Source of the DNA: Patescibacteria group bacterium
GTDB taxonomy: Bacteria; Patescibacteriota; Minisyncoccia; Minisyncoccales; JAHCRE01
DNA: 64,000 nt
Reading direction: 5' to 3'
Assembly: GCA_020148025.1 (NCBI GenBank)
Contig: JAHCRH010000001.1
Location: 12,652 to 76,651, forward strand
Shown piece by piece: positions 1-62,777 of the stretch (positions within the stretch are counted from its first letter, which is position 1; each line of letters opens with the position of its first letter). The notes under the pieces were generated by a model. The model did no database searches and had not been told where the DNA came from. It saw only the letters and a program-made list of their open reading frames with translations. The position numbers and the translations under genes were made by a program.

Positions 1-198
1 ATTGACCCCGATGTTATTAAAATTTTGAGATTGATTTTGAAAAAAGAGATGAGTTTTTTGGAAAAATTGAAAATCGAAAGAACTCATCAGAAAGTAATAA
101 AGGATATATCAGGAAACTATTTATCTTTTGTGAAAGAAGGTCAATTTTAATTTTTCTATTTAATATAGATAAAAGGTGTTAAAATAGAACTATGAAAA

Positions 199-323
199 GT
201 CGCGGCACGCGACGGTCGCTTTTGCGACCGCGCTAATACCGCTCCTTAAAACCCATCGGTTTTAATCTTTCCGCTACGGGAAAACGCCCACTGTTCACAC
301 ACAGCTCAGTTTTCCCGACCCAG
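199..323 (-). repeat. GC-rich palindromic element, family A copy (reverse orientation), upstream of the first ORF
   Basis: 'gtcgcggcacgcgacggtcgc...ctacgggaaaacgcccactg...gttttcccgaccc'; near-identical to the 44634-44733 copy. Confidence 0.65.
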
Positions 324-373
324 GGGCCCGCTTTAGCGGGAGGGTGGTGGGTGGGTTGTAGTCTGATTTTTCT

Positions 374-2029
374 ATGAAAAATAAATTGGCAATTTTCCTT
401 ATTTTTTTGACCGCTGCCTTGGGAGCCGCTGGTTTTTGGTATTATCAAAGAAACATCTATTCAAAAGATATTTTGAAATTGGAGATTTTCGGCCCAGAAA
501 CAGCTGAATTGATGGAAGAGATCGAATATATCGTCAAATATAAAAACAATGGCAATGTTAGGTTAGAGGAGGCCAGGCTTATTTTTGAATATCCAGAACA
601 TTCTATAGTGCTAGAAAATGAATTAAGAAAAGAAAAACCGCTCGACGATATTTATCCGGGAGAAGAAAAAACACTTAATTTTAAAGCTAGATTATTCGGG
701 AAAAAAGATGAATCCAAAATAGCTAAAGCTTGGCTAAGTTATCGGCCCAAAAATCTAAATGCTCGTTACGAATCAGAAACTTCCTTGACCACTATAATAA
801 AGAAGGTCCCGATAACCTTTGAACTTGATCTCCCCTCCAAAATTGAGTCAGGAAAGGAGATTCGATTTAGATTGAATTATTTTTCCAATGTCAATTATCC
901 TCTTTCCAACCTAAGGATAAGAATTGAATATCCTTCTGGCTTCGAGTTTTTAGAATCTAAACCCAAGACTTTGGAAGAAACTGAATGGGAGATTGGTCTT
1001 TTAAATCCAGCTGTAGGAGGGAGAATTGAGGTTTTAGGTAAAATCCAGGGAGAGGTTGGAGAATCAAAAATTTTCTGGGCTGAGCTTGGCCAGTGGCAGG
1101 AAGGAGAACTTGTTTTATTGAAAACAGTTAGTTGGGGAGTGGAGATTATTAAACCACTTTTGTATATTTTTCAAGAAATTAATGGAAATCCAAAGTATAT
1201 TGCTACTCCCGGCGACCTTTTGGATTATCGAATTTTCTTTAAGAATATTGGAGAGAGAGTTTTAGAAAATTTATTTTTAATGGTCAAATTAGAAAGTGAG
1301 ACTTTAGATTTCGACACCCTTAAAGTTGAACCCGATCGATTTGAAAGAATAGAAAATAAGATTATTTGGAACTACACAATGCTTTCTGATCTCAGGAGAC
1401 TGCCCCCAATGGCTGAAGGTAAAGTTGAGTTTTGGATAAAAGTAAAAGATGATTTTTCTCCCGATTTCAAAAATCCGGAAATCAAAACCGTAATTTCTTT
1501 AGATGGATTTAAAGAAGAATTCAACACCAAAATCAATTCAAAATTAGAAATTCTTCAAAAAGGATATTTTGAAGATGGAGTCTTTGGTAATTCTGGCCCC
1601 ATTCCTCCGAGAGTAGGAGAAACGACTACCTATAGTATAATCTGGCAAGCTAAAAATCATTATAACGATGTCAAAAATGTAAAGGTTAAAGCAACCTTGC
1701 CACTAGAAGTTAAATTGACTGGTAAAATTTTTCCTGAAGAGCAATCTTCAAAATTTGCTTTTGATTCTGAATCTCGGGAAATTGTCTGGGAAATCGGAGA
1801 TTTAGAGTCAGCTACAGGAGTTTCTGATGGTGGACCAAATGTTGCTTTTCAAGTATCCCTCACACCCACCGCCAGTCAGAGAGGTCAAATAGCAACTTTA
1901 ATTAATACAGCTAAGATTTCAGGCGAGGACCAATGGACGGAAGCAACCCTAGAAACAACAGCCGAAGCCATTGGCACCACTTTGCCAGACGATGAGACCA
2001 TAAGCGAGGAACAAGGGATTATTCGGTAA
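374..2029 (+). CDS. hypothetical surface protein, N-terminal TM anchor followed by beta-rich repeat domains
   Basis: 551 aa ORF; N-terminal hydrophobic helix 'LAIFLIFLTAALGAAGFWYY'; repeated Ig/DUF11-like segments; function unknown. Confidence 0.55.
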   Translation: MKNKLAIFLIFLTAALGAAGFWYYQRNIYSKDILKLEIFGPETAELMEEIEYIVKYKNNGNVRLEEARLIFEYPEHSIVLENELRKEKPLDDIYPGEEKTLNFKARLFGKKDESKIAKAWLSYRPKNLNARYESETSLTTIIKKVPITFELDLPSKIESGKEIRFRLNYFSNVNYPLSNLRIRIEYPSGFEFLESKPKTLEETEWEIGLLNPAVGGRIEVLGKIQGEVGESKIFWAELGQWQEGELVLLKTVSWGVEIIKPLLYIFQEINGNPKYIATPGDLLDYRIFFKNIGERVLENLFLMVKLESETLDFDTLKVEPDRFERIENKIIWNYTMLSDLRRLPPMAEGKVEFWIKVKDDFSPDFKNPEIKTVISLDGFKEEFNTKINSKLEILQKGYFEDGVFGNSGPIPPRVGETTTYSIIWQAKNHYNDVKNVKVKATLPLEVKLTGKIFPEEQSSKFAFDSESREIVWEIGDLESATGVSDGGPNVAFQVSLTPTASQRGQIATLINTAKISGEDQWTEATLETTAEAIGTTLPDDETISEEQGIIR

Positions 2030-6897: not shown

Positions 6898-8163
6898 ATG
6901 TTCAAAAAAACCATTCTAAAAAATGGTTTGCGGATTATTACTTTTCCTATGAAGAATACTCGAGCTTTGACTCTTTTGATTTTGGTGGCAACTGGCTCAA
7001 AATACGAAAAAAAAGAAAACAATGGAATTTCTCATTTATTAGAGCACATGGCCTTTAAAGGAACAAAAAAGAGACCCCAGACAATAGATATTGCCAAAGA
7101 ATTGGATAGGGTCGGTGGTCTTTATAATGCTTTCACTGGCAAAGAATCGATGGGATTTTGGGTAAAAGTTGGAGCAACTCATTTTGATTTAGCCACTGAT
7201 GTTTTGTCAGACATGGTTTTTAATTCTTTATTTAAAAAAGAAGAAATTGCAAAAGAAAAAAAAGTGATCTTCGAGGAAATCAATATGATGAAAGATAGTC
7301 CTTCAAGATATGTTTTAGAGCTGTGGGGAAAATTATTATATGGTGATCAGCCAGCTGGCTGGCCAATTGCAGGCGAAAAGAAAACAATTGAAAAAATTTC
7401 AAGAAAAGAAATTTTAGATTATTTTAAAAATCAATTTGGAGCAAAAAATATTGTGATTTCTTTAACTGGAAATTTTAAAGAAAAGAAAGCCATCTCAAAG
7501 ATTAAAAGTTTTTTCGGGCGCTTAAAAAAAATAAAACCTATTTTTAAAAAGCCAACAATTGAAATTCAAAAAAAACCTGAAGTTTTAATTAATTTTAAAG
7601 AAACTGATCAGGCTCATTTGTGTCTTGGAGTAAGAACTTTCGACATATTTCAACCAGAAAGATATCCTTTGGCTGTGATGTCTGTGATTTTGGGAGGGAT
7701 TATGAGCTCTCGGCTTTTTATAAAAGTTCGGGAAAAAAGAAGTTTGGCTTATTATATTAGAACATTCCCTCAACATTATACGGATACAGGTTTCCTGGTC
7801 ACTCATACAGGGATAGATAATAAAAGAGTTGAAGAGGCAATAAAGATTATTCTAAATGAATATAGTGATCTTAAAACAAAAAAAGTTTCCAAAAGAGAAC
7901 TTAAAAAAGCAAAAGAAAACATTAAAGGCCGTCTTTATTTAGGATTAGAAACTTCTGATGCCTGGGCAACTTTTTTGGGGAGTCAAGAAATTTTAAAAAA
8001 AGAAATTTCAACTCCTGTGAAAGAGTGTAAAAGAATTGATAAAGTTAGCCAAGCCGATGTTTTAAAGGTAGCAAAAAATCTTTTCCGGCCAGAAAAATTA
8101 AATTTAGCCTTAATTGGTCCATTTAAAGATAAAGAGAAATTTAAAAAACTATTAAGAATATGA
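6898..8163 (+). CDS. M16-family zinc peptidase (insulinase/pitrilysin-like)
   Basis: inverted zinc motif 'HLLEHMAFKGT' (HxxEH); about 420 aa two-domain fold. Confidence 0.85.
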   Translation: MFKKTILKNGLRIITFPMKNTRALTLLILVATGSKYEKKENNGISHLLEHMAFKGTKKRPQTIDIAKELDRVGGLYNAFTGKESMGFWVKVGATHFDLATDVLSDMVFNSLFKKEEIAKEKKVIFEEINMMKDSPSRYVLELWGKLLYGDQPAGWPIAGEKKTIEKISRKEILDYFKNQFGAKNIVISLTGNFKEKKAISKIKSFFGRLKKIKPIFKKPTIEIQKKPEVLINFKETDQAHLCLGVRTFDIFQPERYPLAVMSVILGGIMSSRLFIKVREKRSLAYYIRTFPQHYTDTGFLVTHTGIDNKRVEEAIKIILNEYSDLKTKKVSKRELKKAKENIKGRLYLGLETSDAWATFLGSQEILKKEISTPVKECKRIDKVSQADVLKVAKNLFRPEKLNLALIGPFKDKEKFKKLLRI

Positions 8164-23369: not shown

Positions 23370-23500
23370 CTCGAATTGGGTCGTGATTGAGTGAATGTGC
23401 CGCGAGTCACGGACTCGTAATGTGAGGTAAGAGGATGCCGACGCCCTCCTTATCCATTCCTCTGGCCGAGGCTCCCGCCCACGAGAAAATTGATTCCTGA
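23370..23500 (+). other. GC-rich structured block in an AT-rich spacer (possible ncRNA, leader or repeat element)
   Basis: 'gggtcgtgattgagtgaatgtgccgcgagtcacggactcg...ggccgaggctcccgcccacgag', followed by a hairpin terminator at 23500-23542. Confidence 0.3.
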
Positions 23501-23575
23501 AAGGCGTTCAACAATAAAACTTACGAACGCCTATTTTTTATTTAATTCAGAACTTAAAAATGTTAAGATAAAAAA

Positions 23576-24595
23576 ATGAAAAAGAAGAATCAAAAGTTTA
23601 CTTATCGAGACCTTCAATCCCAGTCCGCCACCGCCCGCGAGCGGACTCGCGGGCGGGCGAGCGGCGGGCCGATGGGGGGCGGATATGTAATTGGAGTAGA
23701 TGGAGGAGGAACAAAAACAATTGCTGCTTTGGCTAATTTAAAAGGAAAGATTTTGAAACTGGCAAAAACTGGGCCTTCAAATTTGAGGAACGTTGGAATA
23801 AAAAAAGCAGCTGAAAATATTGCTTTAGCAATTAAAAAAGTTTTGCCAAAGAAAGGAAAAATTTTATCTACTTTTATAGCTTTGGCAGCAGTTGAAGAAG
23901 AGTATAAATTCAAAAAAGAAAGAATCAAAAAAGAGATTTTAAAAGAAAAAGGAGTTTCTAAAATTTCAAAAGGAAAAATAGAAATTGGTTCAGATCAAGT
24001 TATAGCTTTTAGAGCAGGAACTGATGACAAAGATGGCGTTGTTCTAATTTCAGGCACGGGTTGTGTAGCTCGTGGCTGGAAAGGGAATAAAGAAGCAAAA
24101 GTTTCAGGTTGGGGTTGGTTAGATGATGAGGGTTCTGGATTTTGGGCGGGTCAAAGGGGTTTCCAGGCAGTTTTAAAAGAATTAGATGGTCGAGGGCCAA
24201 AAACTAAAATTACGAAATTAATTTTTAAGGAATGGAAATTGAAAAATAAAGAGGACCTTCTAAAAAAAGTTTATTCAAAAAATTCAATTCGCCAGGTTTC
24301 TTGTATCTCAAGAATCGTTGATAAAGCTGCTGAGGAAGGGGATAAAATTGCCAAAAGTATAATGAAAGAAGCTGGAAAGCAATTAGCTCAAGCTACCATT
24401 TCGGTAATTAAAAAATTAAATTTCAAAAATCAGAAATTCCCCTTAGTTTTGGTTGGCAGAATGTTTAGGTCGAAGGTTGTTTTAAAGAAAGTTAAATCTC
24501 AAGTGAAAAAAATTGCTCCAAGAGTGAAATTTATTCGGCCCAAAAAAGAACCAGTACTTGGGGCAGTAAAATTGGCTATTGAAAATTTAAAATAA
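23576..24595 (+). CDS. BadF/BadG/BcrA/BcrD-type ATPase (N-acetylglucosamine kinase-like)
   Basis: 'GVDGGGTKT'; likely true start at internal Met near 23672; the N-terminal 32 codons are a GC-rich perfect palindrome 'ccgcccgcgagcggactcgcgggcgg'. Confidence 0.7.
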   Translation: MKKKNQKFTYRDLQSQSATARERTRGRASGGPMGGGYVIGVDGGGTKTIAALANLKGKILKLAKTGPSNLRNVGIKKAAENIALAIKKVLPKKGKILSTFIALAAVEEEYKFKKERIKKEILKEKGVSKISKGKIEIGSDQVIAFRAGTDDKDGVVLISGTGCVARGWKGNKEAKVSGWGWLDDEGSGFWAGQRGFQAVLKELDGRGPKTKITKLIFKEWKLKNKEDLLKKVYSKNSIRQVSCISRIVDKAAEEGDKIAKSIMKEAGKQLAQATISVIKKLNFKNQKFPLVLVGRMFRSKVVLKKVKSQVKKIAPRVKFIRPKKEPVLGAVKLAIENLK

Positions 24596-26846: not shown

Positions 26847-27746
26847 TTAGCGCTTCATTGTATAAATACTCCCCCCTAAATTTCTTACTTTACCTTTTAT
26901 TTCCATTATCGCAAGTGTACTCGCCACTGTCGCAGCTTCAAGTTTTGTTTTCTCAATAATTTTATCAATATACAAGGCATCTTCTTTTAGGGCTTCTAAA
27001 ATTAAATTTTCCTCTAAAGTTTCTCCTTCAACGAGAACAGTTCTCGTTGATTTTATTGGTAAGTTTAATTCTTTTAAAATATCGTTGGCGCTTTCTACTA
27101 GTTTGGCTCCTTTTTTAATCAAGAGATGACAACCTTTTGAATTTGAGGAATGAATTGACCCGGGAATAGCAAAAATCTTCCGATTCTGTGTTTTTGCCCA
27201 ATCAGCAGTGATTAAGGCTCCAGATTTTTGTTTTGCTTCAATAACTAAAACCCCTAAACTTAATCCAGAAATTATTCTATTTCTTTGAGGGAAACTAAAT
27301 TGAGTTCCTCGAGTCCCGGGTTCATATTCAGAAATTAAACAGCCGCCTAATTCTAAAATTTTTTTAGCTAATTTTAGATTAGATTAAGGGTAAATGATTT
27401 TTTCATCAAGTCCAGTGCCCAAAACAGCAATTGTCCTTTTCCCTCTCTCGATTGTTGCCTGGTGAACAAAAGTATCAATGCCAGGAGCTAAACCCGAAAC
27501 AATAGTCAATCCGGCTTCGGCTAAGTCTCCGGCAATTTCTAAAGCAATTCTTTTTCCATAGGGAGAAAATCTTCTAGTGCCAACAATTGCAAAACGAGAT
27601 TCTTCCCGCCACAGGCGAGGCTCGTCCATGTGGGCGGCGGCCTTTAATTTACCTAGATAATAAAGAATTTTTGGTGGATTTTTAATCTTCTTTAAAAGTT
27701 TTGGATAATTTTTGTCATTTAAATCGATAGTTTTAATATCTTCCAT
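26847..27746 (-). pseudogene. dprA: DNA processing protein DprA/Smf interrupted by one in-frame TAA
   Basis: N-terminal 120 codons (27384-27746), in-frame TAA at 27384-27386, then 87 codons 'LGGCLISEYEPGT...FPQRNRIISGLSLGVLVIEAKQKSGALITA...AIPG', contiguous with the C-terminal 91 codons (26847-27122). Confidence 0.6.
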
Positions 27747-27752
27747 ACTTTA

Positions 27753-27781
27753 TTGACATATTTATTGGTTTATCATAAATT
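27753..27781 (+). promoter_or_regulatory. putative promoter TTGACA-17-TAAATT in a divergent region
   Basis: 'ttgacatatttattggtttatcataaatt'. Confidence 0.35.
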
Positions 27782-27823
27782 AAAGACAGAGATTTAACAA
27801 GTTTGATATAAGGGTGAAAAAAA

Positions 27824-28048
27824 TTGGTAGCGGAGAATGAAAATCTACAACGGGAAATGGAAGAAAGGGTGTTACAAATCTTAAAAAAGAATCCCAACAA
27901 ATTGGTTTCTATTAGCGGTTGGGATTTCATCGGCATCGATTGGGAAGTAATTAAGTCCATGGGGAAAAGAGGGCTTATTAAAATCCATCCTTTTCCACAA
28001 GGAAGCGCGATATTCATAGGTTTGAATGAACAAAATCGCCAATTTTAA
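27824..28048 (+). CDS. hypothetical small protein (74 aa)
   Basis: ORF with upstream promoter-like element. Confidence 0.35.
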   Translation: MVAENENLQREMEERVLQILKKNPNKLVSISGWDFIGIDWEVIKSMGKRGLIKIHPFPQGSAIFIGLNEQNRQF

Positions 28049-31247: not shown

Positions 31248-31847
31248 TTATTTATTAAACTCATTCATTGTCTTTTCGATTCCTTCTATTATCGCCACCT
31301 CAATTGCCTGGCAAGTTCGTTTAATAACTTCTTTTAAAAGTTTCTCCTCTTTTTTAGTAAATTTTTGAAGAAGAAAACTCTCTAGGGTTTTAGGGTCTAG
31401 GGTATAGGGTTTAGGTTTAATTCCGATTCTGAAACGGACAAAGTTTTTTGTTCCCAACTCATCAGTTATTGATTGAATTCCTTTGTGGCCAGCTGCTCCC
31501 CGATTTTTGATAATTTTCATTTTTCCTAAAGGCAGATCGATATCGTCGTGAACAATAATTAGGTTATTAGGGTCTAGGGTATAGGGTTTAGTTAATAATT
31601 TTACTGCTTTTCCGGAATTGTTCATAAAGGTCTGGGGTTTAGCTAAGATAACTTTCTTCTTATCCAATCTACCTTCTGAAATTAAAGAATTGAATTTTTT
31701 AGAAAATCTAAATTTTGGGAATTTCTTTTCCTTTGCAAATTGATTGACAACTCGAAAACCAAGGTTGTGCCGAGTCCTAATATATTTTCTTCCTGGATTG
31801 CCCAGACCAACAATGAGTGTCATATTAACATTTAAACATATTAACAT
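31248..31847 (-). CDS. pth: peptidyl-tRNA hydrolase
   Basis: 'MTLIVGLGNPGRKYIRTRHNLGF', 'IVHDDIDLPLGK'; contains two identical 25-bp copies of a repeat. Confidence 0.9.
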   Translation of the reverse strand: MLICLNVNMTLIVGLGNPGRKYIRTRHNLGFRVVNQFAKEKKFPKFRFSKKFNSLISEGRLDKKKVILAKPQTFMNNSGKAVKLLTKPYTLDPNNLIIVHDDIDLPLGKMKIIKNRGAAGHKGIQSITDELGTKNFVRFRIGIKPKPYTLDPKTLESFLLQKFTKKEEKLLKEVIKRTCQAIEVAIIEGIEKTMNEFNK

Positions 31848-31960
31848 CTAAACATTTTTAATTTATGTTTAGACGTTTACGTATTTATATGAGATCGGTT
31901 AGTTAATTATATCATTCCTCTTGCAGAATAAAAAAACTTTGGTATAATGAGATAAATCTT

Positions 31961-33859: not shown

Positions 33860-33924
33860 AGAAAAGTTAATTTTAACATGCTAACATCCTAACATTTTAA
33901 CAAAAACAAACTCTCAATGTTTAA

Positions 33925-34284
33925 ATGTTAATATGTTTAAATGTTTTGATGATGGCCGATTGCCTATTTTGCAAAATTATCAAGAAAAAACTTCCCTCAG
34001 ATATTGTCTATGAGTCAGATTCGGTTATTGCTTTTAAGGATATTAATCCTAAGGCCCCGGTACATCTTTTAATTTTGCCAAAGGAACATATTCCTTCGGT
34101 GAATCATTTAAAAAAAGAAGACAGAGAATTAATGGGGGAATTAATACTTGTGGCTCAGAAAATCGCTAAAGAGAAAAAATTAAAAGGATACAAATTAATA
34201 ATTAATGTCGGTCGAGGAGGTGGTCAGCTAATTGACCATTTACATTTACATTTACTGAGTGGAAAACTATTAGAATTACCTTAA
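33925..34284 (+). CDS. HIT-family protein (HinT-like)
   Basis: histidine triad 'HLHLHLL'; start probably at internal Met 'MADCLFCKI' near 33952. Confidence 0.85.
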   Translation: MLICLNVLMMADCLFCKIIKKKLPSDIVYESDSVIAFKDINPKAPVHLLILPKEHIPSVNHLKKEDRELMGELILVAQKIAKEKKLKGYKLIINVGRGGGQLIDHLHLHLLSGKLLELP

Positions 34285-34535: not shown

Positions 34536-34695
34536 TTTTAGGAGAAGCGCTCGGCAACTAAATTTTCAAAGTATCGGCTATCCGAATCCCAGCGAGATTC
34601 GGTATCCTGCGTTCTCGGCCCGTTGTCCGCCAGAGGCAGAACCATGCCAACAGGCCTCCGAAAGCTACTTTGAAAATTGTTGCCTCACTCTAGGT
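34536..34695. repeat. GC-rich MITE-like element, family C, with terminal inverted repeats
   Basis: TIRs 'gcaactaaattttcaaagta' / 'tactttgaaaattgttgc'; core 'gaaccatgcc...ggcctccgaa' shared with 39645-39800. Confidence 0.55.
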
Positions 34696-39644: not shown

Positions 39645-39800
39645 GCTCGCCGTTTGTCACGAAGAGACAACAATCAATTTTCCCAGCGAGAAAATTGTTG
39701 TTCGTTTCTCGGCCTCGCTCTTCGAGCTAAAGCTCGAAACCATGCCCGCTCGGCCTCCGAAGCGCTCTTCTTAGCCAAACGGCTCGCTTAATGGTTGTTC
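39645..39800. repeat. GC-rich element, family C copy (internal hairpin 'gacaacaatcaattttc...gaaaattgttgttc')
   Basis: shares 'gaaaccatgcccgctcggcctccgaagcg' with 34536-34695. Confidence 0.5.
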
Positions 39801-44280: not shown

Positions 44281-44517
44281 ATGCCTAAAAAAAGATTAAA
44301 AGGAACAGTGATATCAGATAAAATGGAAAAAACAGTGGTGGTGGAAATTGAACGGATTAAAGAACATCCAAAATATAAGAGGAGATATAAAGTCCATAAA
44401 AAATATAAAGCCCATGATGAAAAGAGTGAATATAAGATTGGAGACAAAGTGATAATTGAAGAATGTAGGCCAATAAGTAAAGAGAAAAGGTGGAGAGTAA
44501 TAAGAAAATTAGAATAA
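44281..44517 (+). CDS. rpsQ: ribosomal protein S17
   Basis: '[14 protein letters not shown]'. Confidence 0.9.
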
Positions 44518-44597
44518 TGAATAATGAATAATGAATTATGAATTATGAGAACGATATATCCTTATTCTTTATTCCTAATTCGTAATTCTCAGTTTTT

Positions 44598-44810
44598 ATG
44601 ATACAACCAAGAACAATGTTAAAAGTAGCTGATGTCGCGGCACGCGATCGCTTCGCTCCGCTAACACCGCTCCTTGAAACCTTGCGGTTTCAATACTTCC
44701 ACTACGGGAAAACACCCAGTTTTCCCGACCCCTTTCTATTATCAGCTACTTTTGATAGTATTTATTACTACTTTTTAAATAAAATTAAGTTTATTCTAAA
44801 AATAAAATGA
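44598..44810 (+). other. upstream ORF made of a duplicated rplN start (12 codons) fused to a family-A repeat element; its TGA overlaps the rplN ATG
   Basis: 44598-44633 'atgatacaaccaagaacaatgttaaaagtagctgat' versus 44807-44842 'atgatacaacctaggactatgctaaaagtagctgat'; four differences, all synonymous. Confidence 0.5.
44634..44733 (-). repeat. GC-rich palindromic element, family A copy (reverse orientation)
   Basis: 'gtcgcggcacgcga...ctacgggaaaacacccagttttcccgacccc'. Confidence 0.7.
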
Positions 44811-45178
44811 TACAACCTAGGACTATGCTAAAAGTAGCTGATAATACTGGTGCTAAAATCGTTCAATGTTTTAGAGTTTTAGGTGGTACTCGTAAAAGAT
44901 ATGCCCGAATTGGTGATATTATTGTTGGCACTGTAAAAGAAGCTGAGCCGAGAAGACTGGTAAAAAAACACGATATTGTCAGGGCAGTAATAGTTCGTCA
45001 AAAAAAAGCTTATCGAAGATCTGACGGAAGTTATATTCGATTTGACGATAATGCCATCGTAATTTTAGAAGGGAAAACAAAAGACCCAAAAGGGGGGAGA
45101 ATCACTGGACCAGCGCCTAGAGAATTAAAAGAGAAAGGATTTGAAAAAATAGCGGGATTAGCTGAAGAATTAGTATAA
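44807..45178 (+). CDS. rplN: ribosomal protein L14
   Basis: '[17 protein letters not shown]'. Confidence 0.95.
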
Positions 45179-46815: not shown

Positions 46816-46847
46816 AAATTAGAAATACCGCCCCATATCGGAGAGAG

Positions 46848-46990
46848 GTCGGGAGAACCCTCCGGTTCTCCCGTATAGGAAAACAGCGAGCGAAGCTCGC
46901 GTTAGAAACCGAGGGTTTCTAAAGAGCGAGCCCGAAGCGACCCGCCCAGGGCGGGGAGCACCAGAACTTTGTTCTGGAGAGGGCGAGCGA
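46848..46990 (+). repeat. GC-rich palindromic element, family A copy (diverged), between rpsH and rplF
   Basis: 'ggtcgggagaaccctccggttctcccgtataggaaaacagcgagcgaagc...accagaactttgttctgg'. Confidence 0.55.
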
Positions 46991-47000
46991 TTAACCAACC

Positions 47001-47591
47001 ATGTCAAGAATAGGCAAAAAACCAATTAAGATACCGGAAGAAGTAGAAGTAAAAATTAATGGAAATCTGGTGACTATTAAAGGTCCTAAAGGGGAGCAAT
47101 GCCTGAAAATCCGACCGGAGATTAAAGTTGAAATAAAAAACTACATACCCCCCCACCCCTCTCCCCCCAAAAGCGCAGGCCCCTCGGGAAAGATTTTAGT
47201 AGTTACTCCTCGAATTGAGACTAAAAAAACTAAGGCTTTTTGGGGTTTGACCCGATCCCTTTTGGCTAATAAAATTTTTGGGGTAATTACAGGGTACGAA
47301 AAAAAATTAGTAATCGAGGGCTTGGGGTTTAAAGCCAATATTGAGGGGGAAGATTTAGTTTTGCGAGTTGGTTTTACTCATCCGGTAAAAATAGAAGCTC
47401 CCCAAGGGATCAAATTTTCAGTTGATAAAACCGTTATTACGGTTTCAGGAATTAATAAAGAACTGGTTGGTCAAGTTGCTGCAAAAATAAGAAAAGTTCA
47501 TCCCCCCGAGCCCTATAAGGGAAAAGGAATTAAATATCTTGGGGAAATAATTAAAAGAAAGCCAGGGAAGAGAGTAGTAACCGCTGGCTAA
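47001..47591 (+). CDS. rplF: ribosomal protein L6, carrying an in-frame GC/Pro-rich insertion
   Basis: L6 repeats; insert '[18 protein letters not shown]' encoded by 'cccccccacccctctcccccc'. Confidence 0.9.
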
Positions 47592-56143: not shown

Positions 56144-56824
56144 ATGGATAAATTTTTAAAAGGTTATTTTTATAATCCCACTCGAGGAAATTTGAAAATC
56201 AAGGAGGTGATGGAGGAAATGTTAAGCTACATGAAGGAGAAACCAGAAAAGTTTTACGATATTATTGTTGGTTGTGATTCTTCCTCTGGAGAGAAATTCA
56301 ATTTCCCAGTGGCAGTGGTTATTTTAAGAGTAGGGGAAGGAGGGAGATTTTTTCTTAAAAAAATAAATTATCCTCCATCTCTAAGAAAAAAATTTTCCAA
56401 TTGGAAAATGCGAGTTTTGGAAGAAGTTTTATTATCCTGTGAATTAGCTCTATTCTTAAGAGAGAACTTTGAGAAAAAGATAAAAAGTGAATCAAATGCT
56501 TTTGATAAAAAGCCAGAAGGGGGTCGGGAAAACTGGGTGTTTTCCCGTGGTGGAAACAGGGAGGCTGAAAGCCGACCGCCAGAACCGCAAGGTTCTGGGG
56601 AGCTGAGCGAAGCGAGCCCAAAGGGCAAGCGCCAGCCGAAGGCTGGAGAAGCGAAGCAACCTTTTAATTATCAACTTCGTTATATTCATGCTGATATTGG
56701 AGAGCACGGTCAGACAAGAGATATGATAAAAGAAGTTACTGGTTTAATCCGGGGAAATGGCTTTGAGCCAAAGATTAAACCAGAGTCCTATGTAGCTTCA
56801 ACGGTGGCTGATAGATACAGCTAA
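56144..56824 (+). CDS. YkuK/DUF458-family RNase H-like protein carrying an in-frame family-A element insertion of about 150 nt
   Basis: 'IIVGCDSS' ; insertion encodes 'PEGGRENWVFSRGGNREAESRPPEPQGSGELSEASPKGKRQPKAGEAKQP'. Confidence 0.6.
   Translation: MDKFLKGYFYNPTRGNLKIKEVMEEMLSYMKEKPEKFYDIIVGCDSSSGEKFNFPVAVVILRVGEGGRFFLKKINYPPSLRKKFSNWKMRVLEEVLLSCELALFLRENFEKKIKSESNAFDKKPEGGRENWVFSRGGNREAESRPPEPQGSGELSEASPKGKRQPKAGEAKQPFNYQLRYIHADIGEHGQTRDMIKEVTGLIRGNGFEPKIKPESYVASTVADRYS
56517..56660 (+). repeat. GC-rich palindromic element, family A copy, inside the ykuK-like ORF
   Basis: 'gggtcgggaaaactgggtgttttcccgtggtggaaacagggagg...ccagaaccgcaaggttctgg...gcgaagcg'. Confidence 0.7.
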
Positions 56825-58736: not shown

Positions 58737-59933
58737 ATGAAAGTCAAATTTCCTTTTTCGAAAGAAATCAAGCCGGAATATTTTTTAGCCTTAGATGTCG
58801 GGACCGAAGCAGTAAAGGCTTTAATTTTTTCTTCCCCTGCTCGCTCTGGCAAAAGCAGAAAAGAGGAAGGTGAAAAAATCATTGTCCGTGGGGCTTCTAC
58901 TCAATATTTCGAGCAATTTGGAGTTTTCAATACTAAGGGTCTTGGAGAAGAAATTCTCAAAAAAGCAATTTCAAAAGTAATTGAAGAAGTTCAGAAGAAG
59001 GCTCAGATAAAGACAGATGCTCTTTTTCTTGGTTTACCAGCTAATATTTTGAGAGGAAGAGTGGTGTCTCAAAATTTTAGAAGGAAAAATCAAAAAGAAA
59101 TTATTAGCGAGATCGAAAAGAGTCAAATTTATAAAGAGGTTTCAAATTCGGTTAAAGAAAAACTCTCTCAAGAATTCGCTCGAGAAGTAGGCCTCTTACC
59201 CAGAGATTTCTATTTTTCTAATCTAAAAATTCTGGAAATAAAGATTGATGGTTATGAAGTTTCTTCAATTCAGAGATTGAGCGGTAAAAATCTTGATTTT
59301 AAAGTTTTAGCTGTTTTTTTGTCAAGATATTATTTGGAGAAGGTCAAGAAGATTTGCCAAGATTTAGATTTAAAAATTTCTAAAATAATCCATCAGGCTG
59401 AAAATCTGCCCCTTTTTTTTCAAGACAAGAAGATAAATGCTATTTTCCTTGATATTGGCGGAGAATTAACAAAAATTTTTTTGGTGGAAAAGGGAAAACT
59501 AAAGAAAACCTCTGAATTTAAAAAGGGAGGGGTCGATTTTACTCGGAAGCTTTCCCAGATTTTAGGATTAAGTTTCCAAGAGGCAAGAGTTTTAAAACAC
59601 AATTATTCCCAGTTACTTTTGTCAGGAAAAACAAGAAAAAAGGTTAAAGAGATTTTTTCTGCTAATCTTCAAGATTGGTTTAAAAATTTAGAAGAAACTT
59701 TAAAGAAATTCTCCAAGAAATTATTTCCCTCTAATATTTTTCTTTTTGGTGGGGGAAGTCTCTTGCCAGAAATTCCAGAAATTTTAGAAAAAGGTGATTG
59801 GGCTGACTTTCCTTTTGTTTTCAAACCAAAGGTGAGACTTATCTATCCTAACGAGTTAAAGAATATTGAAGATAAAACTCAGGGTCTTAACAGTCCTCAA
59901 GAAATTTCCCTTCTTTTAATTTCTTATGAATAG
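58737..59933 (+). CDS. actin-fold ATPase, PilM-like / FtsA-like
   Basis: 'YFLALDVGTEAVKALIF', 'IFLFGGGSLLPEI'. Confidence 0.5.
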   Translation: MKVKFPFSKEIKPEYFLALDVGTEAVKALIFSSPARSGKSRKEEGEKIIVRGASTQYFEQFGVFNTKGLGEEILKKAISKVIEEVQKKAQIKTDALFLGLPANILRGRVVSQNFRRKNQKEIISEIEKSQIYKEVSNSVKEKLSQEFAREVGLLPRDFYFSNLKILEIKIDGYEVSSIQRLSGKNLDFKVLAVFLSRYYLEKVKKICQDLDLKISKIIHQAENLPLFFQDKKINAIFLDIGGELTKIFLVEKGKLKKTSEFKKGGVDFTRKLSQILGLSFQEARVLKHNYSQLLLSGKTRKKVKEIFSANLQDWFKNLEETLKKFSKKLFPSNIFLFGGGSLLPEIPEILEKGDWADFPFVFKPKVRLIYPNELKNIEDKTQGLNSPQEISLLLISYE

Positions 59934-61125
59934 AAAAATTTTTTTTGATATTTTGCCACCCAAAAAATTTGTCCAAAAGAAGATTAAAGAACAGAGAGTA
60001 TCTCGTTTTGGAGTATTTAAAAAAGGTTTGATTTTCGCTTGTTTATCTTTGATTTTACTGGGAATTATCGGCTATTTTGCTTTAGCTAAAGTAGAAATTG
60101 AGATTTGGCCGGAAACTGAGATTTTAAATTTTAATAAAGAGATTACCGCTAGCACTAAGACTTTTCAAGTAAATTTCTTGGAAGGGAGCATACCTGCAAG
60201 AATTTTTGAAATTGAAGAAAGTGCTTCCCAGGAATTTCCCTCTTCTGGCAAAATTGAAAAGAAAGCTGAGGGTACGATTCGAGTTTATAATAATTATCAT
60301 CTCTTAGTAGCTCTAAGGTCAGGAACTCGATTTCAGCCTCCTTTTGAGAAGGTGCTCTATTTTTGTTCACCTCAAAAAATAGTTATTCCGGCTAAAAGTT
60401 ATCTTGATATTAAGATAATTGCCTGTCGTCCTGGTGAAGGTGAAAAATATAATATTGGACCTTCTAAATTTTCTGTTCCCGGACTCAGTGGTACCGATTT
60501 GTTCTTTTATATTCATGGAGAGTCTTTTGAACCAATGACAGGAGGTGGAACAATCTCTCAAGTCACCGAAGATGATTTAGAAAGGGCAAAAAACATTTTA
60601 ACTGAAACGGCATTTACTCGAATAAATGAATCTTTAAAGAGCAAAATTCCAACTGACTTCATCCCGTTGGAGGAAGCAATAAAAGGAGAGATCTTAGAAA
60701 CTTTTCCAGAGGTTGAGCTAGGCGCTGAAGTTCAATCCTTTGAAGTTAAAGTAAAAGTAAAATCTAAAACCCTGGTTTTTAAAAAATCTGATCTCGAGAA
60801 TTTTGCTAAAGAATTTATTTCAGCCCAAATTCCAAAAGATAAGAAACTTCAGACCGAAAGTCTAAAAATTGACTTCCAAGCAGAATCAACCGACCTTGAA
60901 TCAGAAAAAACTGTTTTAAATTTAAAGTTCTCAGCCAAAATTTACTTGGATATTGACTCCTCTTTTCTTAGAGAGAACTTAAAAGGGAAGTCTTTGGAGG
61001 AGACTAAAATTATTTTAGAAAATCAAGCAGACATTATTAAAGCTCAAATAAGTGCTTGGCCATTTTGGGTAAGAAAAATTCCTCAGGATATTGAAAAAAT
61101 CGAATTGAAAATAAATTTGGATTAA
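59926..61125 (+). CDS. hypothetical membrane-anchored protein (possible pilus assembly partner)
   Basis: N-terminal TM 'LIFACLSLILLGIIGYFALA'. Confidence 0.45.
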   Translation: MNRKIFFDILPPKKFVQKKIKEQRVSRFGVFKKGLIFACLSLILLGIIGYFALAKVEIEIWPETEILNFNKEITASTKTFQVNFLEGSIPARIFEIEESASQEFPSSGKIEKKAEGTIRVYNNYHLLVALRSGTRFQPPFEKVLYFCSPQKIVIPAKSYLDIKIIACRPGEGEKYNIGPSKFSVPGLSGTDLFFYIHGESFEPMTGGGTISQVTEDDLERAKNILTETAFTRINESLKSKIPTDFIPLEEAIKGEILETFPEVELGAEVQSFEVKVKVKSKTLVFKKSDLENFAKEFISAQIPKDKKLQTESLKIDFQAESTDLESEKTVLNLKFSAKIYLDIDSSFLRENLKGKSLEETKIILENQADIIKAQISAWPFWVRKIPQDIEKIELKINLD

Positions 61126-61218
61126 AGCGAGCAAGACGCGCTCCGCAATGGCAGAAGAGATAATTCTTGTTTGATGGGATAAATAAATATTTTTTAGAAC
61201 TTTAATCCAAATTTCAGA

Positions 61219-61450
61219 AAGGGGTCGGGAAAACTAGGTGTTTTCCCGTATAGGAAGACAGGGAGGAGCGAAGCGACGACCGCCAGAAACCGAGAGGTGT
61301 CTGGGGAGCGGAGCGAAGGTCGCCAAGGGCGACCGCTCGAGCGAAGCGCGAGGGAGGAGAGCGACAATATTGATGCTTCGACAGAGGCTCAGCATTAACC
61401 CTGAGGACATTCGGCTGAGCTCAGTCGAAGCCCTTGTCGAATGGGTTGAC
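61219..61450 (+). repeat. composite GC-rich element: family A copy (61219-61374) followed by a family B copy (61372-61450)
   Basis: 'ggggtcgggaaaactaggtgttttcccgtataggaagacagggagg...' then 'gctcagcattaaccctgagg...gtcgaatgggttgac'. Confidence 0.65.
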
Positions 61451-62221: not shown

Positions 62222-62324
62222 AAATCATTTTAACATACTAACATACTAACATCCTAACATCTTAACATATCAAAATACTTTTTTTTGTTTAAATGTTAAA
62301 ATGTTTAAATGTTAAGATGAGATT

Positions 62325-62777
62325 ATGGGTAAAAAAAGAATTATCAAAAAAACTGAAGAAGAGCTTCTAAAAGAAAGAGCAAGAGTCGAGGCGGCTTTAA
62401 AAAAAGAAATTAAAGTTCAGGCTCCTCAAAAAATCAAGGAGGGAAAGGTTTATATTTTTTCTTCTTATAATAATACAATAATGACTTTAACTGGTCCTCA
62501 AGGAAATACTCTTACCTGGGCCAGCGCTGGTAATGTTGGATTTAAGGGAACAAAGAAAGGTACTCCTTTTGCGGCCTCTAAAGTGGCTGAGGTTTTAGTT
62601 CAGCGAGCCAAAAAATTAGGAATAGATAAGGTCGAAATTTTAGTAAAGGGTATAGGTTCTGGTCGAGAATCAGCCATAAGGTCTTTGGCTAATCGGGGTT
62701 TAGATATTATTTCAATTCAGGATGTTACCCCCATTCCTCATAATGGATGTCGACCGCCAAAAGTAAGAAGAGTATAA
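62325..62777 (+). CDS. rpsK: ribosomal protein S11
   Basis: S11 core, C-terminal 'HNGCRPPK'. Confidence 0.95.

Follow-up and report, generated by a model that had tools for sequence, protein, structure and literature searches.

How does a ribosomal protein gene come to carry its own beginning twice? Within the window, as we call the whole stretch of 64,000 nucleotides analysed here, nucleotides 1-36 of rplN occur as ATGATACAACCAAGAACAATGTTAAAAGTAGCTGAT at 44598-44633 and again as ATGATACAACCTAGGACTATGCTAAAAGTAGCTGAT at 44807-44842, 209 nt from start to start. As an earlier note on this DNA had claimed, the start is duplicated with synonymous differences only: four positions differ between the copies (cca/cct, aga/agg, aca/act, tta/cta) and every one is silent. 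These differences all lie within nt 12-22 of rplN, and nt 23-36 are identical. By our own estimate, a 36-mer with at most four mismatches would occur by chance anywhere in 64 kb of this composition with a probability of about 5e-4. Since the copies are, moreover, only 209 nt apart and the repeat begins exactly at the ATG, we do not regard it as a chance match. The upstream ORF opened by the first copy was likewise confirmed; it comprises 70 codons and its TGA overlaps the rplN ATG (ATGA). The features of the locus are as follows.

44281 to 44517, forward strand: rpsQ (ribosomal protein S17), the ORF upstream of the insertion; Pfam Ribosomal_S17 matches its orthologue in another strain (L001).
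44518 to 44597, forward strand: S17-L14 spacer in the native position, AT-rich, with short tandem and inverted repeats.
44598 to 44633, forward strand: upstream copy X, read as the displaced original rplN nt 1-36 (12 codons), native start codon included.
44598 to 44810, forward strand: upstream ORF (uORF) of 70 codons, opening at the displaced start and crossing both the module and the AT-rich leader; its stop TGA overlaps the rplN ATG.
44634 to 44736, forward strand: GC-rich 'family A' module, which opens with the small palindrome GTCGCG..CGCGA and ends in ACCCCTTTC.
44674 to 44693: hairpin H1 of the module, arms TTGAAACC/GGTTTCAA.
44705 to 44727: hairpin H2 of the module, arms CGGGAAAAC/GTTTTCCCG.
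44737 to 44753, reverse strand: X', which matches rplN nt 24-40 perfectly in inverted orientation; the insertion point falls within the match, with 13 nt before it and 4 nt after.
44754 to 44806, forward strand: new AT-rich leader before the functional rplN start, without a Shine-Dalgarno motif, as for most genes here.
44757 to 44775, reverse strand: second, degenerate inverted copy of rplN nt 24-42, 74% complementary and weak alone.
44807 to 45178, forward strand: intact rplN (ribosomal protein L14), 123 aa; Pfam Ribosomal_L14 in homologues.

A collapsed or misjoined repeat might give the same picture, and the earlier note had listed such an assembly artefact among the outcomes that would refute its reading. 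One ENA scaffold does stop 75 nt into rplN, right behind the second copy. However, the same arrangement is present in an ENA metagenome scaffold (L004, 99.93% identity over 4286 nt) and in an NCBI MAG of a diverged strain (L001, dS ~0.08), which has its own substitutions and a nested 36-nt insert that keeps the frame. In total, the rplN-insertion allele is found in three assemblies from different pipelines and projects. Moreover, the two copies differ at four or six sites, so that reads can be placed uniquely. The artefact was thus not borne out, and we consider it barely conceivable.

The history of the locus was read from the S17-L14 spacers of related genomes, a comparison that the earlier note had proposed. 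One relative, L016, provides an empty site: its alignment to L001 (92%) runs from S17 through the spacer to rplN nt 35-36, where L001 diverges into the module. Other relatives have short S17-L14 spacers without the module. The spacer of L001 contains a different type of repeat from that of the window and is homologous to the native spacer of L016. This colinearity identifies the upstream copy as the original start of rplN, which has kept its place behind the native S17-L14 spacer. The upstream copy also resembles the native rplN starts of the relatives (CCAAGAACAATGTTA, with ATGTTA in every relative), and it is the downstream copy that is the odd one. The insert after rplN nt 36 measures 209 nt and comprises a 103-nt GC-rich module with three hairpins, the 17-nt inverted copy, the AT-rich leader and the second nt 1-36. 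The comparison shows that a small non-coding GC-rich hairpin module was inserted after rplN nt 36, and that the second nt 1-36 and the new AT-rich leader came with the insertion or were created by it. Because of this second copy, an intact rplN lies downstream. The peculiar insertion history that the earlier note had offered as one of two explanations is thus supported, both by the filled and empty sites at rplN and by a second case at another gene, described below.

No similarity was detected between the new leader (53 nt) and the native S17-L14 spacers of seven relatives, and a promoter and terminator scan gave no site above shuffled background. A TTGATA-17-TTAAAT pair was spotted by eye in this leader; it failed the criteria of the scan.

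The stretch between module and gene, previously described as a 73-nt AT-rich spacer, is indeed AT-rich but is not featureless, as it holds both the perfect 17-nt and the degenerate inverted copies of rplN. Besides the gene itself, the window contains one such match to the 17-mer of X', where 0.02 would be expected by chance. X' can pair with the upstream copy, closing the module, or alternatively with the real gene. The rplN module folds into a long closing stem and three hairpins (z = -7 in folding), and compensatory changes are found in both H1 and H2 across the module copies. These changes were listed arm by arm; in the MAFFT alignment, hairpins whose loops are 3 nt and 4 nt long were shifted against each other. 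No Rfam family covers the module, whether in the window, at 44400-44900 with E up to 10, or at 14 related loci; at the gathering score of Rfam 15, one tRNA is the sole match in the window.

The arrangement of X' resembles that of an internal guide, with the complement of the 3' side followed by that of the 5' side. In addition, joining upstream nt 36 to 44843 yields exactly L14, and a strong hairpin begins at what would be the take-off site. These features would suit a scheme in which the 209 nt are removed as a self-splicing intron or skipped in a gene-60/byp-like bypass from GAT to GAT, with L14 made from the upstream ATG. However, covariance models gave no match to a group I or group II intron, a ribozyme or another relevant structured RNA in 44400-44900 at E up to 10. 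GAT codons do match at 44631 and 44840, but the take-off codon is followed by GTC and not by the stop of a programmed bypass. The gap of 209 nt also compares poorly with tens of nucleotides, about 50 nt in the known cases (T4 gene 60, yeast mitochondrial byps). Finally, the downstream copy has its own ATG, so that nothing needs to be removed. Taken together, removal or bypass appears highly improbable. Two other candidates were rejected at this stage. A guide-RNA (omega-RNA-like) reading fails, as the downstream gene copy itself would be the target. A diversity-generating retroelement was dropped, the repeat being only 36 nt and no reverse transcriptase occurring among the ten proteins scanned; its adenine signature is uninformative here (three differences at A and one at T, tta/cta), nearly all third positions being A.

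Five copies of the module lie in the window. The four others are listed below; a mini module also lies within the L6 gene.

192 to 380, forward strand: copy c1; the native ATGAAAA of gene 374..2029 is retained at 192-198 and is followed by a 182-nt insert (199-380).
46830 to 46990, reverse strand: copy c5, a diverged family member filling the S8-L6 spacer; its H2 is CGGGAGAACC/GGTTCTCCCG.
56514 to 56700, reverse strand: copy c3, an in-frame insertion in an RNase H-like (PF04308) gene (56144..56824), whose Pfam match is split into two stretches.
61200 to 61440, reverse strand: copy c4, between the ORF 59926..61125 and infA.

The c1 insert contains a mini GC module besides the module of family A, and it also includes the re-created start, CTATGAAAA. 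The corresponding empty site is seen in a sister strain (L028) and also in L029-L032. Judged from these alignments, c1 is a recent insertion after nt 7 of its target gene, with the gene start re-created once more. Whether other copies of the element carry duplicated gene starts, a point raised by the earlier note, is thus answered by gene 374..2029. Copy c1 lacks an inverted copy of its target; its leftover start opens a mere 14-codon ORF that stops inside the module, and a 4-nt microhomology (CTAT) lies at the edge of a shortened copy of the leader. In c4, the right end of the module directly adjoins 61200-61214, which is a perfect inverted copy of the last 15 nt of the neighbouring ORF (61113-61127).

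Outside the window, 20 module copies were found at 18 further loci, and 15 adjoin a tRNA gene on the opposite strand. In 11 of the tRNA-linked copies, an exact 13-20-nt duplicate of the tRNA 3' end, running from the T-stem/T-loop boundary to the 3' end, abuts the left end of the module. Modules linked to tRNA genes occur in several Patescibacteria lineages, with tandem accretion at tRNA-Gln genes in a Falkowbacteria MAG. Since c1 is missing from the sister strain, we conclude that the module is a member of a family of repeats mobile in Patescibacteria. A Pfam scan of ten window proteins detected no recombinase, transposase or reverse transcriptase, viral contigs gave no match to the module, and no autonomous relative of it was found.

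The layout that recurs consists of a displaced gene fragment, the module, an inverted copy of the uninterrupted target, a spacer and the intact gene. The duplication ranges from 9 to 36 nt among the copies. Layout and variable length would seem to point to an insertion that is replicative, that proceeds by template switching, or that uses staggered breaks of variable spacing, and not to a fixed-stagger transposase.

The second rplN start could have been made from the first or could have been brought in. The downstream copy has four synonymous changes within 11 nt and the upstream copy has none, more than simple in-place divergence predicts; by our own estimate, with dS since insertion at ~0.1-0.2, in-place divergence would produce such clustering with a probability below 0.01. 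One alternative is that the element carried its own rplN start, either as a small circle (module, X', leader, rplN nt 1-36) integrating via a single crossover in nt 23-36, or as an allele passed between diverged strains by homologous recombination, with the crossover inside the upstream copy. The differences would then be synonymous because the copies stem from functional rplN genes of different lineages. Such an origin is consistent with the confinement of all four differences to nt 12-22 next to an identical nt 23-36. It also agrees with a native-looking upstream copy and a foreign-looking downstream copy, whose four atypical codons (CCT AGG ACT .. CTA) include AGG and CTA, minor codons of this genome. 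Furthermore, each of the two strains has its own version of the upstream copy (ATA CAA versus ATT CAG) behind unrelated spacers, and downstream nt 1-36 are the same in L001. Integrative elements leave the same layout at tRNA 3' ends, the boundary of the tRNA-linked copies falling at the T-stem/T-loop junction, and a homologue of DprA, a natural-transformation protein, is present though split. However, the recent c1 has ATTTTTCT, the first nucleotides of the native leader, before its re-created start, which argues that c1 is a duplication made in place. The ten window proteins scanned include no integrase, and viral contigs contain no match. Among the relatives sampled, no uninterrupted native rplN has codons of the downstream type (start ATGATACAACCTAGGACTATGCTA), and the 14-nt block of identity is short for RecA-type exchange. 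On balance, an rplN start carried by the element seems unlikely. Separately, a recent recombination tract over the element (44607-45093, with 3 substitutions and one indel) was considered and dropped, other parts of the operon being equally similar.

The uORF was also proposed in the earlier note to be under selection for its peptide. Its frame is open in 3% of composition-preserving shuffles, each of the other frames having 4-5 stops. In L001 it extends to 82 codons with its end unchanged, the nested 36-nt insertion preserving the frame and adding no stop. The upstream copy differs at 2 sites between the two insertion-bearing strains, both synonymous, where ~2.8 neutral changes would be expected at dS 0.077. 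The lack of non-synonymous changes in this copy has P roughly 0.1 under neutrality and is not significant. The rest of the peptide is unconserved, close strains differing in it by a 12-codon insertion and a K-to-E change. A search of 5.8 billion proteins found no homologue besides one identical copy, and the ORF is annotated as a protein in one public assembly. An exact scan of JGI metagenomes for the junction (rplN end plus module start) gave no matches and thus no further alleles for dN/dS; the reading frame is kept in the two strains, which are the only two independent alleles. Selection on the upstream peptide is therefore not supported. A role for the 70-aa product, either as a small protein with a function of its own or as a leader peptide in regulation, would accord with the synonymous-only differences in its first 12 codons and with the conservation of the ORF in two strains. 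However, those 12 codons are simply the L14 N-terminus, the remaining part is a translated repeat element altered by 12 codons and the K-to-E change between close strains, the peptide is without homologues, and the ORF is missing from all sampled relatives at 89-93% L14 identity. We thus regard a functional peptide as very unlikely. The changes in the downstream copy are synonymous because that copy is the real L14 N-terminus, and the uORF is most likely a by-product of the insertion and not a conserved peptide gene.

The frame of the uORF may nevertheless be kept open for a hand-over of ribosomes at the ATGA. In the strongest form of this idea, the uORF is a selected device for translational coupling, and L14 needs ribosomes that have initiated at the old ATG, melted the module on their way and started anew at the ATGA. 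This overlaps with the explanation that we prefer and differs in making the uORF necessary and not incidental. Selection on coupling would account for the open frame and the intact first codons. The rarity of an open frame among the shuffles and the nested L001 insertion that leaves it intact are in keeping with coupling, as is the native initiation context still in place. The overlap is of a type shared with other gene pairs here (4-nt start/stop overlaps occur elsewhere in the window, e.g. at 8160/8163 and 20805/20808). Between the strains (dS 0.077), 44607-45093, module and leader included, shows only 3 substitutions and one indel; other 300-nt windows of the operon are, however, equally little diverged. 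Moreover, the ATGA is intrinsic to rplN (Met-Ile), so that any ORF in that frame terminates there. The downstream ATG has an AT-rich unstructured leader of its own, as do most genes of this genome, which is poor in Shine-Dalgarno sites (SD-like 4-mer in 8/60 genes of the window). Only two independent alleles are available, and c1 functions without such an ORF. An obligatory coupling device is thus a tentative possibility. Because the leftover start of c1 yields only 14 codons ending inside the module, a hand-over would not be a general property of the family.

The rplN case is probably best explained as the insertion of a mobile element with a target duplication that repairs the gene, the uORF being a by-product. 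According to this explanation, L14 would be made from the downstream ATG. The old ATG probably initiates too, as this genome rarely uses Shine-Dalgarno sites and the native context is retained. Ribosomes starting there would traverse the module and stop at the TGA of the ATGA, on the rplN start. Such read-through would keep the mRNA translated across the insertion, and termination-reinitiation could pass ribosomes on to rplN. The synonymous-only pattern would then require no functional peptide, the downstream copy being under purifying selection as part of L14 and the upstream copy still being native-like. Nucleotides 20-36 of the upstream copy may additionally be held by pairing with X'.

A broader proposal, possible but doubtful at present, is that the module represents an undescribed non-autonomous mobile element of Patescibacteria, which enters the ends of conserved, often essential genes and copies the terminus to repair the damage, by a new target-templated or template-switching chemistry. 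It would enter tRNA genes where T-stem and T-loop meet, and protein genes, rplN among them, within their first codons. Its signature would be a direct duplicate at one flank and, at the opposite flank, the uninterrupted target copied in inverted orientation. The chemistry might involve single-stranded hairpin DNA or RNA, and would be neither that of a fixed-stagger transposase nor that of a classical integrase.

The locus indicates that a minimal-genome bacterium can survive a selfish repeat within an essential and highly expressed gene for a ribosomal protein when the gene start is re-created behind the element. It provides a concrete, testable case of an insertion-born uORF in a genome that hardly uses Shine-Dalgarno sites, useful for studying start-codon choice and translational coupling in operons of such organisms. 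That the same module adjoins tRNA genes in several CPR lineages, with a shared layout of direct and inverted copies of the target, points to a mechanism of insertion so far undescribed. For annotation, leftovers of this kind can mislead gene callers.

Among known systems, the Rickettsia palindromic elements (RPEs) are structured, non-coding, many-copy elements of ~100-150 nt, GC-richer than their AT-rich host and tolerated in frame in genes (PMC10969869). The module is likewise structured, multicopy, of the same size and GC-richer than its AT-rich host, and in-frame intragenic insertion is seen in the RNase H-like gene, where c3 is read as protein, and for the mini module in L6. Unlike RPEs, the inserts at rplN and gene 374 are not read as protein, the gene start being duplicated instead, and at rplN the real protein starts past the element. 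Further differences are the inverted target copy that comes with the element and the spread of the family across phylum-level lineages, mostly linked to tRNA genes. As with MITEs, the copies are dispersed (five in the window and 18 further loci), polymorphic in presence and absence (the empty rplN site) and without coding capacity. At rplN, the stem that closes the module is formed by target sequence (X and X') and not by terminal inverted repeats of the element; short matching ends that belong to the element itself are seen in some tRNA-linked copies, e.g. GAATCTCACGCG / CGCGTTAGATTC in L014. Nor is the target-site duplication short and fixed, measuring 9 nt at c1 (possibly more), 36 nt at rplN and 13-20 nt in the tRNA-linked copies.

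The GC clusters and byp elements of yeast mitochondria measure 30-55 nt and are translated or bypassed, with no duplication of gene starts. The module resembles them as a GC-rich hairpin element spreading in an AT-rich compact genome, coding regions included, but is longer and duplicates gene starts. The 4-nt stop/start overlap in a tightly packed ribosomal-protein operon recalls ATGA-coupled upstream ORFs; unlike the known ones, the rplN uORF is insertion-born, confined to two strains and encodes a translated repeat, and its coupling is putative.

A similar layout is found in integrative elements at tRNA 3' ends and in their non-autonomous derivatives, the CIME-type elements, where the element separates an intact gene from a displaced duplicate of its terminus. 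Direct repeats derived from the gene terminus, as in attL/attR pairs, flank the element at rplN, at gene 374 and in 11 tRNA-linked copies. The boundary of the latter, between T-stem and T-loop, is said (Williams 2002) to be a usual crossover sublocation, and the tandem accretion at tRNA-Gln genes in the Falkowbacteria MAG is a further resemblance. The divergence of an element-borne copy from the host copy outside a shared core fits rplN (nt 12-22 only) but not c1, whose new leader resembles the local one. Unlike integrative elements, the whole unit is only ~150-250 nt, and a scan of ten window proteins showed no integrase. The duplicate adjoins a three-hairpin module that is conserved, and the target is also found as an inverted copy. 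The 5' ends of protein genes are used too, and the c1 duplicate was seemingly made in place.

Finally, template switching by FoSTeS/MMBIR yields duplication-inverted segment-duplication products. The order seen here (direct copy, inserted DNA, inverted copy over the breakpoint, direct copy), the variable length of the duplication and the microhomology CTAT at c1 are all of this kind. In contrast to FoSTeS/MMBIR products, one defined, sharp-ended module lies at the junction in many genomes; this recurrence argues for a recurrent or dedicated process and not for a one-off accident.

The window sequence bears out a duplication described in the earlier note: the first 36 nt of rplN occur twice, at 44598-44633 (ATGATACAACCAAGAACAATGTTAAAAGTAGCTGAT, upstream copy) and at 44807-44842 (ATGATACAACCTAGGACTATGCTAAAAGTAGCTGAT, downstream copy). 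The repeat finder returned the copies as a 36-nt family with a spacing of 209 nt. As claimed there, they differ at four positions only, each synonymous; all four mismatches lie within nt 12-22 and none within nt 23-36. The upstream ATG opens a 70-codon ORF (uORF, 44598..44810) whose TGA does overlap the ATG of a 123-aa ORF (44807..45178). The latter encodes ribosomal protein L14, with best database matches to Patescibacteria/Nealsonbacteria L14 (up to 98% identity), and lies in an S10-spc ribosomal protein cluster. The duplicated start is therefore a real feature of this sequence.

The arrangement was also found in L004, an ENA metagenome scaffold containing both copies (99.93% identity across 4.3 kb), and in L001, an NCBI MAG of another strain. 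Across eleven ribosomal protein genes, that strain and the window show a synonymous divergence (dS) of 0.077. An assembly artefact, the objection raised beforehand, is ruled out by this recurrence. The downstream copy of L001 is identical to that of the window, and its upstream copy carries two further differences (ATT CAG for ATA CAA), both synonymous. The GC-rich hairpin repeat that follows the upstream copy, hereafter the module, is longer by 36 nt in L001; the uORF there has 82 codons and retains the ATGA end.

S17-L14 spacers were compared in relatives whose L14 is 89-93% identical. They are 14-179 nt long, with a single rplN start and no module. In one such relative, L016, the alignment with L001 (92% identity) starts at the end of S17, crosses a spacer whose repeat type the two have in common, and holds as far as nt 35-36 of rplN; beyond this point L016 goes on as rplN (AATACTGGT), whereas L001 enters the module (GTCGCGG). 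Since the alignment breaks there, the upstream copy is the native rplN start at its native location, and the inserted DNA occupies 44634-44842, which amounts to 209 nt in the window; in L001 it measures 245 nt. Consistent with this, the upstream codons CCA AGA ACA ATG TTA are those of the relatives (ATGTTA in 7/7); the downstream copy reads CCT AGG ACT ATG CTA, two of whose codons, AGG and CTA, are minor ones in this genome. The "peculiar insertion history" proposed as one explanation was thus right, and can be stated precisely as 209 nt inserted after nt 36.

A different type of filler occupies the same operon junction in another relative (L017-L019), where the 179-nt spacer (e.g. L017 1322-1500) strings together short GC hairpins that have UUCG or GAAG loops and ATATT between them. 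Some AT-rich spacers consist of TAACATnn units with a period of 8 nt and then the inverse of these units (TGTTTAAA), which gives long AT hairpins. Such spacers fill intergenic gaps and are exchanged between close strains; at the S17-L14 junction, the spacer of the window is unrelated to that of L001.

AT-rich spacers of the TAACATnn type:
Window 31818-31862
Window 33874-33952
Window 62223-62328
L001 2676-2755
L016 236-315

The rplN insert is composed of the following elements, with an AT-rich leader of ~30 nt between the last of them and the new rplN start.

Elements of the rplN insert:
44634-44736, module, 103 nt, GC-rich, with a small palindrome at the left end and two conserved hairpins
44737-44753, perfect inverted copy of rplN nt 24-40 (TATTATCAGCTACTTTT), directly after the module
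44757-44775, second inverted copy, degenerate

The arms of the conserved hairpins are TTGAAACC/GGTTTCAA and CGGGAAAAC/GTTTTCCCG. The perfect inverted copy includes the 13 nt preceding the insertion point and the 4 nt following it; because it spans this point, it must have been copied from uninterrupted rplN. In the predicted fold, as RNA or single-stranded DNA of either strand, a 16-18-bp stem forms between the upstream and inverted copies, and the three hairpins inside it make up a cloverleaf-like four-way junction (z-scores -5.5 to -7). Pairing of the inverted copy with the real rplN is equally conceivable (17 bp, with a 76-nt loop containing the rplN start).

Further copies of the module, and a mini GC-rich module of about 36-45 nt (GGGGCCCGC..AGCGGG..GGGTGGnGGGTGGG) seen at three places, are listed here.

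Module and mini-module copies:
About 199-372, c1, module copy
About 56514-56700, minus strand, c3, in frame within an RNase H-like gene with a Pfam match broken into two parts
About 61215-61440, minus strand, c4, right end abutting a perfect inverted copy of the neighbouring ORF's final 15 nt
About 46830-46990, minus strand, c5, diverged, filling the S8-L6 spacer
321-355, mini module, right of c1
47148-47195, mini module, in frame inside rplF (L6), encoding part of its product
L001 2865-2905, mini module nested in reverse in the hairpin-2 loop of the rplN element, adding exactly 36 nt

The earlier note had suggested looking for 5′ duplications of target genes at other copies, and c1 has one. 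In the sister strain (L028, from the same MAG as L001) and in three more distant relatives, RecO is followed by a spacer of 25-43 nt, after which comes ATGAAAAATAAA. In the window the spacer and ATGAAAA are the same, and a 182-nt insert follows them; it begins with GTCGCGGCACGCGA, as the rplN copy does, and ends with ATTTTTCT and a second ATGAAAA. Comparison of filled and empty sites thus shows an insertion into the first codons of a second protein gene, whose start was formed anew. The leftover start opens only a 14-codon ORF with its stop inside the module. This insertion postdates the split between the window strain and the L001/L028 strain. The module is a repeat family, and it is mobile.

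Other window features were noted in passing. Two GC-rich intergenic stretches (34590-34665 and 39700-39795) have in common TTCTCGGCC ... AACCATGCC ... GGCCTCCGAA(A)GC and could belong to a further repeat family or to a structured RNA that precedes genes; neither gave an Rfam hit at gathering score. A GC-rich, palindrome-rich stretch (23617-23680), in frame near the 5′ end of ORF 23576..24595, looks like another intragenic insertion. Upstream of this ORF, a 120-nt GC-rich intergenic region (23385-23510) may be a structured RNA, although Rfam did not recognise it at gathering score. A DprA (DNA processing protein A) homologue (26850-28017, minus strand) is split over three ORFs with a mid stop, which could reflect pseudogene formation, a frameshift or an error in the sequencing. 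The GC skew stays positive over nearly the whole window, the exception being the minus-strand block at 24.8-30.2 kb.

Selection on the upstream peptide, the other explanation proposed for the synonymous-only differences, is unsupported. Only synonymous changes can persist in the downstream copy because it encodes the real L14 N-terminus. The upstream copy shows no visible decay, and the time for decay is short: over 36 nt, neutrality predicts about 2.8 changes between the two strains, against 2 seen, and the chance of zero non-synonymous change under neutrality is roughly 0.1 (estimated from the dS of 0.077). Pairing with the inverted copy is a further constraint on its nt 20-36. After codon 12 the L001 peptide differs from that of the window by 12 gained codons and a K-to-E change, and a protein database search found no homologues of the uORF peptide. 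We therefore see no case for a functional peptide. What is odd is the downstream copy, where four changes within 11 nt are too many for ordinary divergence in place. The new copy may have been made by an error-prone process during insertion; it may derive from another lineage, element-borne or by homologous exchange with a crossover in nt 23-36; or the changes may have been selected, e.g. because they make the real gene pair less strongly with the inverted copy, as the T-to-C change at nt 22 removes three pairs.

The uORF could still matter through its translation. A loose Shine-Dalgarno 4-mer lies within 20 nt of the start in only 8/60 likely genes of the whole window, and gene starts sit in AT-rich sequence; the old rplN ATG, in its native context, is therefore likely to initiate. 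Its frame is stop-free through 173 nt, as in 3% of shuffles keeping the composition of the GC and AT parts, and the other two frames across the insert contain four and five stops. The nested 36-nt insertion in L001 preserves the frame, and four-nucleotide stop/start overlaps also occur between other window genes. With the frame open, ribosomes would remain on the mRNA through the inserted DNA and stop at the rplN start, allowing hand-over and protection from polarity. The data are consistent with selection for such a role. The evidence is modest, given that ATGA is intrinsic to Met-Ile, that there are two alleles only, and that c1 manages without such an ORF. Hand-over as a necessary function seems somewhat doubtful; that it simply happens is more probable.

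An exact-pattern scan for the region of the second conserved hairpin (H2) gave 18 loci. Ten come from species-representative genomes, whose titles name Saccharibacteria, Falkowbacteria, Berkelbacteria and unclassified Patescibacteria, and eight from metagenome contigs; viral contigs yielded none. At 15/18 loci a tRNA gene lies on the opposite strand within about 50-210 nt of the module. In 11 copies an exact 13-20-nt duplicate of the adjacent tRNA's 3′ end, reaching the T-stem/T-loop boundary, abuts the left end of the module. Next to the right end of tRNA-linked copies comes the T-loop together with the 3′ T-stem strand, copied in the sense orientation; read by eye, this is again an inverted copy spanning the junction. 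The common order is displaced fragment, module, inverted target copy, spacer and intact gene, the right end always facing the intact gene terminus. Hairpin arms differ among copies by compensatory changes (first hairpin, H1: TTAAAACC/GGTTTTAG, TTGGAAACC/GGTTTCCAA, ATAGAAACC/GGTTTCTAT and CCAGAACC/GGTTCTGG; H2: CGGGAAACC/GGTTTCCCG and CGGGAGAACC/GGTTCTCCCG).

In a Falkowbacteria MAG (L007 3780-4280; L010; L011 680-1500), tandem stacks of the module and of a second unit lie at tRNA-Gln genes, with a tRNA 3′ fragment ahead of each unit. These fragments end in CCA, which is encoded by the tRNA-Gln(ttg) gene and not by the adjacent tRNA-Gln(ctg).

For the movement of the element, we rank first, at about an even chance, duplication in place by staggered or template-switching insertion. 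The order of direct copy, insert, inverted copy spanning the breakpoint and direct copy is the signature of template switching in replication or repair, although a conserved, sharply bounded module implies a recurrent process. Integration of a form carrying its own gene terminus ranks second and is unlikely: the element layout and the T-arm boundary in tRNA genes suit an integrase-like process, but no recombinase was found among ten window proteins scanned against Pfam, and the c1 insertion seems to have copied local sequence. Other modes share the remaining probability; against a classical transposase, the duplication length varies from 9 to 36 nt. Neither Rfam, searched with the module from the window and related loci, nor a full-text literature search on related repeat elements returned a match to the wider pattern, in which a hairpin module shared across lineages inserts at gene termini, with a direct and an inverted copy of the target left behind. 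Compared with known systems, the module is a variant of the small non-autonomous repeat elements.
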